A DNA stretch of 64,000 bases from Escherichia phage AV115: sequence record OR352945.1. One strand, written 5' to 3'. Positions 1,489-63,916 of the stretch are shown one piece after another (position 1 is the first letter of the stretch; each line of letters begins with the position of its first letter). The notes below the pieces were generated by a model that searched no databases, was not told where the DNA came from, and was given only the letters and a program-made list of their open reading frames with translations. Both the position numbers and the translations under genes were made by a program.

Positions 1489-1651
1489 TATAAATTCTCT
1501 TTAAATGAAAATGCAGGACTTATTGACATTGCCTGCTCAAGCCCTCAATGGGAACATAGGTTTTGGATATTTAACGACAGGATAACCATAAACCCGTCAT
1601 CATACCTACCATGACTTACACAGCTAACCTTTTGCTGACGCATGATAGCAA

Positions 1652-1900
1652 TTATTTCAAAGTAATAACAAAATGACGTACTGCTTTACGAGCTGCAGAA
1701 GCCAAAGGCTTAGCATATTTCAGTTCATCTTTTGCTTCCAGTTCAGAAGCCAAAGCTGCCTGGACCGGGTTCAGATGTTTGAAATAACGAAGGATTTCAA
1801 GAGCTTCGGCTTCAACATCAATAGATGCGCCATAGTTTTCATGACCATTATTCCATGCGTTTCGTTGCAGTTCAAGAGCGTGTTGTAATTGTTTAATCAT
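1652..1900 (-). CDS. rIII: lysis inhibition accessory protein rIII (82 aa)
   Basis: Length and sequence match recalled T4 rIII; sits next to gene 31. Confidence 0.75.
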   Translation of the reverse strand: MIKQLQHALELQRNAWNNGHENYGASIDVEAEALEILRYFKHLNPVQAALASELEAKDELKYAKPLASAARKAVRHFVITLK

Positions 1901-5383: not shown

Positions 5384-6469
<1,086 letters not shown>

Positions 6470-6470
<1 letters not shown>

Positions 6471-6769
6471 TATTTTATTCCTAAGAAAGTTTCAAGAATA
6501 CGAATGTTATGCTCGCGCCGGTCTTTATTAATTTCAGCAACGTTTTTATTGATTGACGTACTTCTAACGTTTGAAGAAATAAATTTAATCATATGACTTT
6601 TGAGTTGTTGCAAATCCAACCCTTTTTCTTTAGCAGCTTTACGAAGAGCTTTACCTGCTTCATCTAGTGCCTTTGCTGCATCTTTGTCATAATCGACAAG
6701 TGACATTCCACGGCAGATATCAATATACTCATCAGACCGTTTGATGTAATTCTCTAGTAATGTTTTCAT
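6470..6769 (-). CDS. hypothetical protein (99 aa)
   Basis: ORF downstream of early promoter at 6795-6828. Confidence 0.45.
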
Positions 6770-6794
6770 TTAGATTTCCTCAATTATCCATAGG

Positions 6795-6828
6795 AGCATT
6801 ATACTCTGCTCCCGAGAGTTTGTAAACT
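6795..6828 (-). promoter_or_regulatory. T4-type early promoter
   Basis: Minus strand GTTTAC, 18 nt, TATAAT. Confidence 0.55.
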
Positions 6829-7051
6829 ATTTTACTAAAGATTCAATATACTCATGAAGAGCTTTAGTAGCTACTGCCCACTTATTCTGATATTCATTTT
6901 TCAGATTAGCACGAGACTGAACTAACAAGCGGTCATTAGTCGGAGGCAAAGATTCTAATCGTTGAATCTGGCGCCCATAAATCATAGCCGCCATTTCAGA
7001 TTCATAGATAAGCCCTTTAATGTATTCATGCTGTTCTTTAGTCATTGGCAT
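6827..7051 (-). CDS. hypothetical protein (74 aa)
   Basis: ORF only. Confidence 0.4.
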   Translation of the reverse strand: MPMTKEQHEYIKGLIYESEMAAMIYGRQIQRLESLPPTNDRLLVQSRANLKNEYQNKWAVATKALHEYIESLVK

Positions 7052-7332
7052 TTTTCCTCTTTTAAACCACTACGATAATAACATAACATAGTCTTCTGGT
7101 CATGTACATATCTTTTTATGTCGTTTAACCAGATACGAAATTCTTGAGAGTCTTCAAATGGCATTCCAACCCATGGATTACCATCAATAACCTTTACTTG
7201 CCATTTCTGGTTATATTCAGCAATAGATTCAGGCCATGGCGGATGTAAAGTTTCTTTAGGGCTTAAGGGCACATCCTGGGCACATCCAGCCAAAATGCCA
7301 ATAGATAATACAACTGCGGTTAATTTAATCAT
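7042..7332 (-). CDS. putative lipoprotein (96 aa)
   Basis: N-terminal signal with lipobox-like LAGC (MIKLTAVVLSIGILAGCAQ). Confidence 0.5.
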   Translation of the reverse strand: MIKLTAVVLSIGILAGCAQDVPLSPKETLHPPWPESIAEYNQKWQVKVIDGNPWVGMPFEDSQEFRIWLNDIKRYVHDQKTMLCYYRSGLKEEKCQ

Positions 7333-7685
7333 TCTGAGAGCTTCCTGAGGTCTTCTGCAAAGGAATCGAAGGACCTGTTGATTTGTTTTTCGACCAATCC
7401 TGGCTTACTTGCCACCACGTTCTTCTTCTTCGAATCCTGACGGAGCTTTTCATTTTCGGCCTTAAGTTGGTCAACTAAAACACGGTTCTTATAAGTCATT
7501 TCTTCGATTGACTGATATTGAACCTTGAAGTCGTCTAATACTTTAGCATTGTTTTTAGCGGTCTCTTTGACAGAAGCTAATTCAGTATTCAACGAATCAA
7601 CTTTGTTGTTTAAGACCACTATTGTTACCGTAGAAACTAGAGCAAAAGCTGCTACTATAGCATAAATCGGATTTACTTTAAGCAT
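7329..7685 (-). CDS. hypothetical membrane-anchored coiled-coil protein (118 aa)
   Basis: N-terminal hydrophobic segment then charged helical region. Confidence 0.45.
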   Translation of the reverse strand: MLKVNPIYAIVAAFALVSTVTIVVLNNKVDSLNTELASVKETAKNNAKVLDDFKVQYQSIEEMTYKNRVLVDQLKAENEKLRQDSKKKNVVASKPGLVEKQINRSFDSFAEDLRKLSE

Positions 7686-59693: not shown

Positions 59694-60353
59694 TTAACCT
59701 CGATTCATAAATGCATTAAATATTTGGTCATCAACAGAAATTTCTAATTCGACTTCAATTGTTTCAGCCTTTTCTTCAGGTGGTAATTCGTATCCACACA
59801 CTACAATTTTTTCATCGATATCAAAATATACAGAAGCAATACGATTAATGTTATTTTCAGTTAAGTCTAAATCAACATCAACATCTTTTTGACCTACACT
59901 TAAAGGATAACTAATGCGGGTTATTTTATTATCTTTAACAAAGAGTCCGCCAACGTACTCTGTACTACGTTTGAAGTTTACACGTTTCCGAATTGAAAGA
60001 TATGATACATCTTTACCGTGAGCTCGGCTCATAGGACATAATGAATAGCTAGAATAAGAGATGTCAAATCCTACACCTTCAATATGAGCCAACGTGTCAT
60101 GATTAAACCAATTATAATCATATGCCAAATCCATTATATTGTAATATGTGAAAGGCACAGGATTAACATCATATGTTGTACCTTTAAAATCTGCCCAGGC
60201 AACGATTTCGTTATCTTTAACAATTACAAAAATTACACCAATATGGTATCCGTTATTATTTTCATTCGGCGTTATATTATAACATTGTGCATTAGGAAAT
60301 TTACCATATTTAAATGGCGCATTTTTGTGCATATAATAAATCATATTATTCAC
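59694..60353 (-). CDS. hypothetical protein (219 aa)
   Basis: ORF only. Confidence 0.45.
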   Translation of the reverse strand: MNNMIYYMHKNAPFKYGKFPNAQCYNITPNENNNGYHIGVIFVIVKDNEIVAWADFKGTTYDVNPVPFTYYNIMDLAYDYNWFNHDTLAHIEGVGFDISYSSYSLCPMSRAHGKDVSYLSIRKRVNFKRSTEYVGGLFVKDNKITRISYPLSVGQKDVDVDLDLTENNINRIASVYFDIDEKIVVCGYELPPEEKAETIEVELEISVDDQIFNAFMNRG

Positions 60354-60664: not shown

Positions 60665-60699
60665 GACTACTATACTATAGTCCATCTATAATGTAAACA
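60665..60699 (-). promoter_or_regulatory. T4-type early promoter upstream of sp
   Basis: Minus strand GTTTAC, 15-18 nt, TAGTAT or TATAGT. Confidence 0.45.
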
Positions 60700-60974: not shown

Positions 60975-61010
60975 TGTTTATAGTATCTTGTTTTAACTTT
61001 GGTGTAAACC
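60975..61010 (-). promoter_or_regulatory. T4-type early promoter
   Basis: Minus strand GTTTAC, 18 nt, TACTAT. Confidence 0.5.
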
Positions 61011-61381: not shown

Positions 61382-61404
61382 TTCAATTTCCTCTGTAGTT
61401 GATA

Positions 61405-61440
61405 GAAAGATAGTAACACAGTATGTGGTGCTTGTAAACA
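61405..61440 (-). promoter_or_regulatory. T4-type early promoter
   Basis: Minus strand GTTTAC, 18 nt, TACTAT. Confidence 0.5.
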
Positions 61441-61452
61441 GTTATTTTAAAA

Positions 61453-61641
61453 TTATCGAAAATCTGCTTCGAAAACTTTCTCGTCATTAACAAATGCTTT
61501 AACTAATGCTTTGTTCACTTCAGCAAGTTGTACCGTAACCCACTCGATTTCTTCGCGATCACCTGATAACATGATATCTTTAGTGAACATCTCACCGCTT
61601 TTAAACCAACCGATAAAAGTAACTTTAGTTAATTTGCTCAT
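61453..61641 (-). CDS. dmd: Dmd antitoxin (discriminator of mRNA degradation)
   Basis: 62 aa from ATG 61639-61641 (GAGGAAAT RBS); VTFIGWFKSGEMFTK...AEVNKALVKAF matches recalled T4 Dmd. Confidence 0.8.
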   Translation of the reverse strand: MSKLTKVTFIGWFKSGEMFTKDIMLSGDREEIEWVTVQLAEVNKALVKAFVNDEKVFEADFR

Positions 61642-61955
61642 ATTTCCTCGCAAAATGCCCATTCAGCGTGATAAACTGTAGCGCCTTTAGTATCATTCAT
61701 TTGAACTACATCTACCGGAGAAATTACTCGATAGAGACGTGGTTCACCTCCATAAGAGCGTGCTGCTCGTCCTGCATAAATCTTTGCTAAACCGATATCT
61801 TCAGTAAAGAATACACGATCCAAGTTTTTCTTACGTCCAGTTTCAGACAGAACTCCTGTTTCTTCAGGAGGACAAAGCATGTTTTCGATGTTAGCTGAAC
61901 TACTTGAACCGTGATAAAAAATCTTAAATTCTGCTTTACAATCGATGGTTTTCAT
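61638..61955 (-). CDS. hypothetical protein (105 aa)
   Basis: Stop overlaps dmd start; early promoter at 61978-62011. Confidence 0.4.
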   Translation of the reverse strand: MKTIDCKAEFKIFYHGSSSSANIENMLCPPEETGVLSETGRKKNLDRVFFTEDIGLAKIYAGRAARSYGGEPRLYRVISPVDVVQMNDTKGATVYHAEWAFCEEI

Positions 61956-61977: not shown

Positions 61978-62011
61978 GTCTATAATAACACAACTACTGG
62001 AGAAGTAAACT
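61978..62011 (-). promoter_or_regulatory. T4-type early promoter
   Basis: Minus strand GTTTAC, 17 nt, TATTAT. Confidence 0.5.
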
Positions 62012-62385
62012 TAAAAACGTAATTTAGATATATCTGCGTTGATTTCGTTTTGGTTTGCGTCGTATGCAATTAAACGAACCGCTTTAGATGGGTCATTCAA
62101 TGCATAGAAATGATGGAACATTGCTCGAACGATATCACCATTTACGAGTTCTACCTGGATAGGAGAACCTTTTTCGAGTTGGAAATGTTCATAAGCTTTG
62201 ATGGTTCGTAGATAATCAAGTTTTTGATTTCCGGCTCCAACTATTTGTACGATACGTTTGCCCATGTTTTCCATACGAGATACAATAGTTTTAGGAGCAA
62301 GAATAACGTAGGTTGCCAGCGGAGAAACTACTTCAACAGTTGTGTTTTCGGTGATTGCAGTAAAAATTGCTTGAGACATATTCAT
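62011..62385 (-). CDS. hypothetical protein (124 aa)
   Basis: ORF downstream of early promoter at 62410-62445. Confidence 0.45.
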   Translation of the reverse strand: MNMSQAIFTAITENTTVEVVSPLATYVILAPKTIVSRMENMGKRIVQIVGAGNQKLDYLRTIKAYEHFQLEKGSPIQVELVNGDIVRAMFHHFYALNDPSKAVRLIAYDANQNEINADISKLRF

Positions 62386-62409: not shown

Positions 62410-62445
62410 AGTACATCATATCATGCCTAGAGGAAGATGTAAACC
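62410..62445 (-). promoter_or_regulatory. T4-type early promoter
   Basis: Minus strand GTTTAC, 18 nt, TATGAT. Confidence 0.5.
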
Positions 62446-62450
62446 CCGAA

Positions 62451-62468
62451 AGGAGACCGAAGTCTCCT
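62451..62468. terminator. palindromic hairpin after gene 41 (A/T tracts on both sides)
   Basis: AGGAGAC-CGAA-GTCTCCT flanked by AAA and TTTTT. Confidence 0.45.
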
Positions 62469-62473
62469 TTTTA

Positions 62474-63916
62474 TTAAAATTTTAACTCGTTGGCTAAGCT
62501 ATCTAGGTCAGCACGTGTTGCTTTGGCTTTACCTACGCGTTCCGTACGATTCACCTCTGCCTGACGCATCTGAGCACCTGCGTTTTCATTTACTGTGTTA
62601 GGTGTGTTCATGCCTTCTTGCTCAATCTCAACCCATTTCTGATTGCCTTTACGTACACCCATCAGGAATTTATTCCACTTATTCTTATCACCATATCGTG
62701 ATTTGATTTGTTTGATAAGTTGTTGTTCAGCTTGTGCAAGTTCTTCGGTTTCAATTACGGCCAACATGAAATCTGCCGTTGCTGGTAAACCTGCTGATTC
62801 TGCAATATCACTCATGTTCATGTCTGAAGCATCCCATGCTGCACGTCCTACTTGAGCTGCAGTCCATAGAACTGTTTCAGATTCTACTGCTAATGCACGA
62901 AGTTCTTCTGCGATAGCTTTAACTAATGTGTAGCTATTTTCAGTGTAAACTCTGATACGACAAGACCCACAAATACCTAAGTAATCAACCATGATTACAG
63001 ATGGCACAAAGTTCTTCTTGAGTTTCAATTCATTAAGCAATGCACGGAATGTATTAGCATTAGCTCCGCCAGTAGGATACTGTTTAACTACTAAACGTCC
63101 TAATGTGGATTTTGAACGCCATTTTTCCATCTTGGCTTTATATTCAGCATAAGATACGTTACCATCATCAATATCATCGAGCGATACGTCAAGCATGTTT
63201 GCATCTATACGCTTAGCACAAACTTCTTCAGCCATTTCCATAGAAATATAAAGAACATTATGACCTGTTTGAAGATAATCTGCAGCAAGTGAACAAAGGC
63301 CTAAAGATTTACCAACGTTAACACCGGCCATTAAAACATTCAGTGTACCGGTTTCAGCACCACCTTTAGTGATTTTATTCAAAATGTTTAATTTGAACGG
63401 GACCTTACGTGCTTTGTTCAGATAAGAAAGCCAGCGTGCTTCATAGTCTTCCATCCAGTCATGTCCAACATAACTATCGAACGAAATTGAAAGTGCTTGA
63501 CGCATAATATCAGGAATAGCTCCTACGTCAGGCATTTTCTTGTTACGTTGTTCTGGAGGTAGTTCAGCATTAGACTGAATCTCAATGATTTTGGATGTAG
63601 CATTATACATCGCTTTTTGCTGGACATATTTCTCAGTTTCTTTAACCAACCATTCATGGTCTTCAGGAGTATCAGCCAATTTTTCAATTAGGTCCGAAGT
63701 TCCTTTATATTCGGCTTCAGTTAAAGAACTGTTATCTAAAGCCACCTTTAATGCATTGATAGATGGCATTGCATTATATTCGTTAACGTGGCTCTTTATA
63801 ATTTTAAAGACATTTTTTGCCGGTCCACGCTCAAAATACTCAGAATCCATATAAGGCCAGACCTTAGAAAAATAAGCCTGGTCATATACTAGATGAGACA
63901 AAATAATTTCTACCAC
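62474..63916 (-). CDS. 41: replicative DNA helicase gp41 (DnaB-like)
   Basis: 480 aa; GTG start with AAGGAG RBS; Walker A GVNVGKS; near-identical to recalled T4 gp41. Confidence 0.95.
   Translation of the reverse strand: MVEIILSHLVYDQAYFSKVWPYMDSEYFERGPAKNVFKIIKSHVNEYNAMPSINALKVALDNSSLTEAEYKGTSDLIEKLADTPEDHEWLVKETEKYVQQKAMYNATSKIIEIQSNAELPPEQRNKKMPDVGAIPDIMRQALSISFDSYVGHDWMEDYEARWLSYLNKARKVPFKLNILNKITKGGAETGTLNVLMAGVNVGKSLGLCSLAADYLQTGHNVLYISMEMAEEVCAKRIDANMLDVSLDDIDDGNVSYAEYKAKMEKWRSKSTLGRLVVKQYPTGGANANTFRALLNELKLKKNFVPSVIMVDYLGICGSCRIRVYTENSYTLVKAIAEELRALAVESETVLWTAAQVGRAAWDASDMNMSDIAESAGLPATADFMLAVIETEELAQAEQQLIKQIKSRYGDKNKWNKFLMGVRKGNQKWVEIEQEGMNTPNTVNENAGAQMRQAEVNRTERVGKAKATRADLDSLANELKF

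Follow-up and report, generated by a model that had tools for sequence, protein, structure and literature searches.

The dmd gene of Escherichia phage AV115, an RB69-type homologue of T4 gene 61.5 that probably neutralises RnlA/LsoA-class toxins

Does the short reading frame that lies between gene 41 and imm.1 in Escherichia phage AV115 encode a homologue of the T4 antitoxin Dmd, and what would such a protein do during infection? In T4 dmd mutants the middle and late mRNAs are lost to the host endoribonuclease RnlA (RNase LS), and purified Dmd blocks RnlA cleavage in vitro (PMC3014915, PMC8266594, PMC7180214). [quoted passage not shown] Here we analysed the AV115 frame together with the whole 64-kb stretch of phage DNA that contains it (henceforth referred to as the window).

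The dmd reading frame and its family

The frame lies on the minus strand at 61453..61641 and consists of an unbroken series of 62 codons followed by a TAA stop; upon translation, both the coordinates and the 62-amino-acid length given in an initial annotation of this DNA were found to be exact. The translated product, MSKLTKVTFIGWFKSGEMFTKDIMLSGDREEIEWVTVQLAEVNKALVKAFVNDEKVFEADFR, is small and acidic (computed mass 7.2 kDa, pI about 5.0), and the 64-kb window contains a single copy of the gene. When the product was compared with all PDB chain sequences by phmmer, it matched 5i8j_A (‘Dmd discriminator of mRNA degradation’; E 2.2e-36, 60 of 62 residues identical) and 5hy3_B (T4 ‘Antitoxin Dmd’; E 1.1e-17), and no other chain. 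The product also matched Pfam PF17587 ‘Dmd’ with 75.2 bits against a gathering cut-off of 27 bits, with residues 4-62 lying on positions 3-59 of the 60-position profile, and PHROG 2102 (Dmd) with an E-value of 3.8e-33. BLASTP alignment with T4 Dmd (taken from NC_000866) spanned the full length and gave 34 identical residues out of 59 (58%) with one gap of two residues. This alignment bears out the homology to T4 Dmd that the initial annotation had claimed, as do the 97% identity to RB69 Dmd, the Pfam and PHROG matches and the preserved gene order described below. That the product of 61453..61641 belongs to the Dmd family is, in our judgement, close to certain.

The RB69 dmd translation is the very protein of entry 5I8J, which is entitled ‘Crystal structure of Dmd from phage RB69’ and holds the free Dmd rather than a complex; entry 5HY3 is entitled ‘E. 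coli toxin LsoA in complex with T4 phage antitoxin Dmd’. An AlphaFold2 model of the window Dmd, computed from the single sequence (pLDDT 74), has the order strand-strand-long helix-strand (E3-12, E18-27, H29-50, E59-61), and a fold search of this model against the PDB retrieved only the two 5i8j chains at E ≤ 0.001, with 5hy3_B third at E 0.014. These matches had low TM-scores (0.43-0.46; rmsd to 5i8j 10 Å), owing to the mediocre quality of a model made from one sequence; we consequently gave more weight to the 97% identity in sequence to the 5I8J chain, whose structure is solved, than to the fold matches.

Two other accounts of the frame were weighed. That it is a chance or decaying open reading frame without function is the least credible of all the readings considered here: its small size is the one feature that would speak for it, whereas E-values of 1e-17 to 1e-36 against solved Dmd proteins refute it in practice, the frame is intact and matched over at least 80% of the Dmd length in 790 phage records, the codon changes relative to RB69 are mostly synonymous, and both the Shine-Dalgarno sequence and the start are conserved. 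Scarcely more credible is a longer, 69-amino-acid product (MGILRGNMSKL...) initiated at the ATG at 61662, even though 61453..61662 is the longest form of the frame in the ORF listing. We preferred the start at 61641 because it is preceded by the sequence GAGG (61646..61649, minus strand), because it is the annotated start in RB69, JK45 and AV109, whose depositors all chose the short version, and because it is aligned with the first methionine of T4 Dmd and six other homologues. The GAGG, read from the sequence, lies 4 nt before the dmd ATG within the 3' end of the upstream ORF040c and is invariant in an alignment with RB69 and JK45; ahead of 61662, on the other hand, there is no Shine-Dalgarno sequence, and the additional 21 nt fall in the 3' end of ORF040c, which is read in a different frame. 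The start at 61662, with this overlap and with homologues that do not align there, was rejected. An antisense frame at 61511..61681 (plus strand, TTG start, 56 amino acids) was unsupported and lies wholly inside dmd and ORF040c, and was treated as a shadow ORF.

Relatives, gene order and conserved residues

The 2.4 kb around dmd are 99.9% identical to the corresponding region of Escherichia phages AV109 and AV114 (Mosigvirus) and 98.8-99.4% identical to that of two dozen other RB69-like phages. Most RB69-like records label the gene ‘discriminator of mRNA degradation’ (as AV109 does) or ‘antitoxin’, and, codon for codon, the window gene exactly matches the dmd annotated in AV109 and in JK45. 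The gene is thus already known: it is the ordinary dmd (T4 gene 61.5 orthologue) of an RB69-like Mosigvirus, annotated in near-identical genomes and with the structure of a near-identical protein solved. The 790 records matched by tblastn belong nearly all to phages of Escherichia, Shigella, Yersinia, Salmonella and Citrobacter; RB69-type Dmd (at least 90% identity) was found in 140 of them, and a large T4-type group lies near 56-58% identity.

On the minus strand the window holds, in order, the gene 41 helicase (62474..63916, from the ORF list and profile matches), a homologue of RB69ORF041c (62011..62385; 124 amino acids, 100% identical, PHROG 10668, without a Pfam match), ORF040c, dmd, imm.1 (DUF5481), imm, sp (Spackle), adfA and then two small ORFs. 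RB69, JK45 and AV109 share this gene order, which in these genomes runs on to the primase gene 61. Downstream of dmd, at a distance of 1.1 kb, is the adfA gene (59694..60353, minus strand) for anti-DarT factor A, whose product scores 398 bits on Pfam PF23813 and shares 98.6% identity with RB69 gp61.2. Taken together, ORF040c, dmd, imm.1, imm, sp and adfA are a compact counter-defence and superinfection-exclusion block. No Rfam family at gathering thresholds and no tRNA was detected in the whole 64-kb window. RefSeq places the Shigella phage JK45 (NC_054940) in Tequatrovirus (‘Tequatrovirus jaykay’). The genes of its 41-61 region are ordered as in RB69, and the region is 99.2% identical to the window; AV109, at 99.9%, is filed under Mosigvirus, so that the placing of JK45 looks like a taxonomic inconsistency.

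RB69 Dmd (NP_861729) is the closest relative of solved structure: it is identical to the window Dmd at 60 of 62 residues, and the two genes agree in genomic position, in having ORF040c upstream, in the ATGA overlap and in the Shine-Dalgarno sequence. The window protein differs from it by N44K, which restores the residue found in T4, by I51V and by the loss of the C-terminal Gly63. At the DNA level there are six codon differences, four synonymous and two conservative non-synonymous, all of which lie in codons 44-62 beside the site of the tifA indel, the first 129 nt being identical; this clustering suggests, from the sequences compared, a recombination junction and not uniform drift.

T4 Dmd (PDB 5HY3 chain B) belongs to the same Pfam family and the same length class (60 versus 62 amino acids), is likewise small and acidic, and its gene likewise lies between gene 41 and sp/61; it has a different N-terminal tripeptide and lacks two residues that are inserted in the window Dmd in the loop leading into the helix. 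According to Wan et al. (2016), residues W31 and N40 of T4 Dmd are reportedly required for binding to LsoA. By phmmer, BLASTP and an eight-protein alignment, these conserved residues correspond to W34 and N43 of the window Dmd. N43 and the AEVN motif are invariant in all eight aligned Dmd proteins, drawn from Mosigvirus, Tequatrovirus, Dhakavirus and Krischvirus, and the tryptophan is present in six of the eight. The whole helix segment AEVNKALVKAF is common to the window Dmd and T4 Dmd, including K44 beside N43, where RB69 has asparagine.

The identity of dmd alleles within Mosigvirus spans 56% to 100%, with the genes on either side unchanged. The Dmd of phage OLB35 (gene at 1501..1695 of the compared segment) is 67% identical to the window Dmd and that of LH01 (1501..1704 of the compared segment) 56%, and around both alleles ORF041c, ORF040c, imm.1, imm and sp are in place. 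The OLB35 protein has a scrambled middle segment (YQVIAKKSSGLRYN) and is missing the conserved tryptophan; its record is marked UNVERIFIED, and either two frameshifts or an error in sequencing could account for the scrambled segment. In LH01 the tryptophan is replaced by arginine, and a different ORF of 46 amino acids follows dmd.

ORF040c, candidate expression signals and the absence of tifA

The gene directly upstream of dmd, a homologue of RB69ORF040c (61638..61955, minus strand; 105 amino acids, 99% identical, PHROG 2110), is probably co-transcribed with it. The dmd ATG (61641..61639) overlaps the ORF040c TGA (61640..61638) in an ATGA sequence at 61638..61641, and the annotations of RB69, JK45 and AV109 show this overlap too. 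The arrangement is typical of translational coupling, and ORF040c and dmd are possibly coupled in this way.

Consensus matching revealed a T4-early-type promoter-like site at 61982..62009 (minus strand; GTTTACT and TATTAT separated by 16 nt, with a TG extension). It lies 26 nt ahead of the start codon of ORF040c and appears to be the likeliest candidate promoter for an ORF040c-dmd transcript. A second such match (62415..62443, minus strand; GTTTACA and TATGAT, spacing 17 nt) lies between gene 41 and ORF041c and is a possible additional source of read-through transcripts. After dmd, a further site was matched at 61438..61410 (minus strand) in the spacer before imm.1, and matches of the GTTTAC(A/T) type at 61008..60980 and 60697..60669 (minus strand) stand ahead of small genes in the dmd block. 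Over the scanned region the early-promoter consensus gave 20 matches versus 12.7 ± 4.0 in shuffled sequences. The simplest reading of these consensus matches would be an early bicistronic ORF040c-dmd message; T4 dmd is itself early and promoter-proximal (PMC9391042, PMC3014915). The leaders before ORF040c and imm.1 have CTATCAACTAC in common, and such repeated promoter cassettes could act as recombination sites for gene shuffling, the tifA indel being one example.

With regard to hairpins, a terminator-like hairpin at 61870..61853, inside ORF040c, was set aside as being at chance level (1 found versus 2.2 expected). Just past the gene 41 stop codon (62474..62476), at 62452..62467 (minus strand), six perfect base pairs capped by a UUCG tetraloop form a hairpin (GGAGAC-UUCG-GUCUCC), with UUUC after it; it stands immediately upstream of the early-promoter-like site in the gene 41-ORF041c interval. 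It was absent from the output of the terminator scan, and could be an RNA-stabilising or terminator element between the two genes.

ORF040c had no match in Pfam up to E 10, nor in the PDB by phmmer or with a six-sequence profile, and a literature search on RB69ORF040c and PHROG 2110 returned nothing relevant. As sequence and profile searches were blank, structure comparison provided the sole lead on this protein. An AlphaFold2 model built from a 37-sequence alignment (pLDDT 86, pTM 0.78) had its best PDB fold matches in the rifampin ADP-ribosyltransferase Arr (2hw2, 9iaf; TM 0.61-0.63, probability 1.00, E about 0.01-0.02), followed by Tpt1/KptA 2'-phosphotransferases and then by ADP-ribosyltransferases of the cholera-toxin and ParT types; the protein is thus predicted, from this model, to have an Arr/Tpt1-like ADP-ribosyltransferase fold. 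In its YHG[ST] motif H15-G16 is invariant, and some of its homologues have already been labelled ‘ADP-ribosyl transferase’ by a few depositors. ORF040c is absent from T4 but occurs in 609 records, and its identity of 64-72% in T4-like phages of Klebsiella, Acinetobacter and Aeromonas is unusually high for an accessory gene. In many phages without dmd, ORF040c adjoins gene 41, and its adjacency to dmd is accordingly positional and does not imply a functional link.

On the other side of dmd, the window departs from RB69. In T4, dmd comes directly after gene 41 and opens an early operon that it forms with tifA (PMC9391042); tifA (gp61.4) encodes an inhibitor of ToxN (PMC9391042, PMC10853763). In contrast to T4, the window dmd is placed as a second cistron behind ORF040c and no tifA follows it. 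RB69 tifA starts one base after dmd (5751..5963 of the compared RB69 segment), whereas the window, JK45 and AV109 show a clean gap of ~206 bp relative to RB69 from the dmd stop codon onwards, with tifA gone. The window Dmd ends in DFR and a stop versus DFRG and a stop in RB69, the RB69 codons AGA GGA, which supply the tifA Shine-Dalgarno sequence, being replaced by CGA TAA. In the alignment with RB69 and JK45, the site of RB69 tifA corresponds to a spacer of 71 nt 3' of dmd (61382..61452, minus strand), which holds the promoter-like site at 61438..61410 and the Shine-Dalgarno sequence of imm.1. Searches of the 64-kb window with T4 and RB69 TifA as queries gave nothing better than E 1.6. In the phage collection, RB69-type Dmd occurs in about 140 records but RB69-type TifA in only 69.

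Proposed mode of action and range of targets

We consider it likely (probability roughly 0.87) that the gene is a Mosigvirus dmd, probably expressed early as a second cistron, whose product neutralises freed RnlA/LsoA as in T4. In the mechanism proposed, early transcription from a sigma-70/T4-early-type promoter would yield an ORF040c-dmd message with dmd as its second cistron, and ribosomes would start on dmd at the GAGG that precedes it, possibly in a manner coupled to the termination of ORF040c. As infection halts host gene expression, the labile antitoxins RnlB and LsoB would vanish and the HEPN toxins RnlA and LsoA would be freed. By analogy with T4, Dmd would then bind directly to the toxin, in the groove that separates the NRD (the second TBP-like domain) from the HEPN (Dmd-binding) domain, take the place of the vanished host antitoxin and stop RNA cleavage, and the middle and late phage mRNAs would survive. 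The LsoA-Dmd crystal structure shows Dmd in this groove of LsoA, beside the conserved Arg/Glu residues (PMC3014915, PMC8266594, PMC7180214).

To judge by homology, the window Dmd probably acts early in infection by binding RnlA-family HEPN RNase toxins directly and neutralising them, and it would be reasonable to expect from T4 genetics and biochemistry that AV115 counters RnlA/LsoA-class toxins. We hold this function with less confidence than the family assignment because a literature search found no published experiment on an RB69-type Dmd protein. For the window Dmd itself, we infer the timing of expression, the coupling, the binding to toxin and the toxin specificity.

Other small proteins do comparable work. 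The host antitoxins RnlB and LsoB presumably do the same job by binding directly to the HEPN domain of RnlA and LsoA (PMC8266594, PMC7180214), but they do not resemble Dmd in sequence (PMC7180214); neither can replace the other, unlike T4 Dmd, which acts on both toxins, and they are labile host proteins whereas Dmd is a phage early protein. TifA (T4 gp61.4) and AdfA (T4 gp61.2) are, like Dmd, small early proteins of the 41-61 region that neutralise TA toxins, namely ToxN and DarT; however, they are unrelated to Dmd in sequence and have other targets, and AdfA is encoded in the window whereas TifA is absent.

The 58% identity to T4 Dmd and the two-residue insertion before the helix imply that the toxin range of the window Dmd may differ from that of T4 Dmd. 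In its strong form, which we think unlikely, the protein is a true Dmd whose target has shifted to diverged RnlA-family or other HEPN toxins of the natural hosts of Mosigvirus, so that it acts weakly or not at all on K-12 RnlA and pOSAK1 LsoA. The limited identity to T4 Dmd would agree with such a shift, and so would the spread of Mosigvirus dmd alleles between constant flanks, which is the pattern expected of an arms-race gene, and the LH01 allele without the tryptophan. The distribution of possible targets points the same way. With E. coli K-12 rnlAB (5919..7356 of the compared segment) as the query, DNA similarity was found in 436 of 5,426 complete E. coli genomes: K-12-type rnlAB was present in 363, at 99% identity or above, these being largely K-12 derivatives, and diverged loci of 60-80% DNA identity were present in 73 more, one example being a locus in NZ_OZ369314. 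All matches were chromosomal, no plasmid rnlAB being detected in the 5,426 genomes at the DNA-similarity sensitivity used. Few sequenced E. coli thus carry the classic target of Dmd, and the toxin family has diverged members; from these counts the natural targets of Dmd are probably diverse. Against a shifted target stand the conservation with T4 of W34, N43 and the AEVNKALVKAF segment, and the fact that T4 Dmd already covers two diverged toxins, RnlA and LsoA (PMC7180214), such that broad cross-reactivity is the norm of the family. Even if it were correct, a shifted specificity does not change the kind of gene, which would still be dmd. We regard as slightly less likely again the more far-reaching proposal that RB69-type Dmd has a toxin range unlike that of T4 Dmd and is perhaps paired with the coupled ADP-ribosyltransferase-fold ORF040c as a two-part early counter-defence cassette; if this were true, the lineage without tifA would show a single state of an anti-TA island made up of modules, flanked by promoters and rearranged through recombination.

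The reading of the gene as an ordinary dmd acting on RnlA/LsoA-class toxins has little discovery value in itself, given that essentially identical genomes carry it annotated as dmd and that the crystal structure of the RB69 orthologue has been solved. It is useful for annotation and for reasoning about host range: phage AV115 is expected to be insensitive to abortive defence of the RnlAB/LsoAB type and, since the window is without tifA, may be more sensitive to ToxIN than RB69, which is a prediction. More widely, the variable content of the ORF040c-dmd-imm.1-imm-sp-adfA island could help to predict the plating range of therapeutic Mosigvirus phages.
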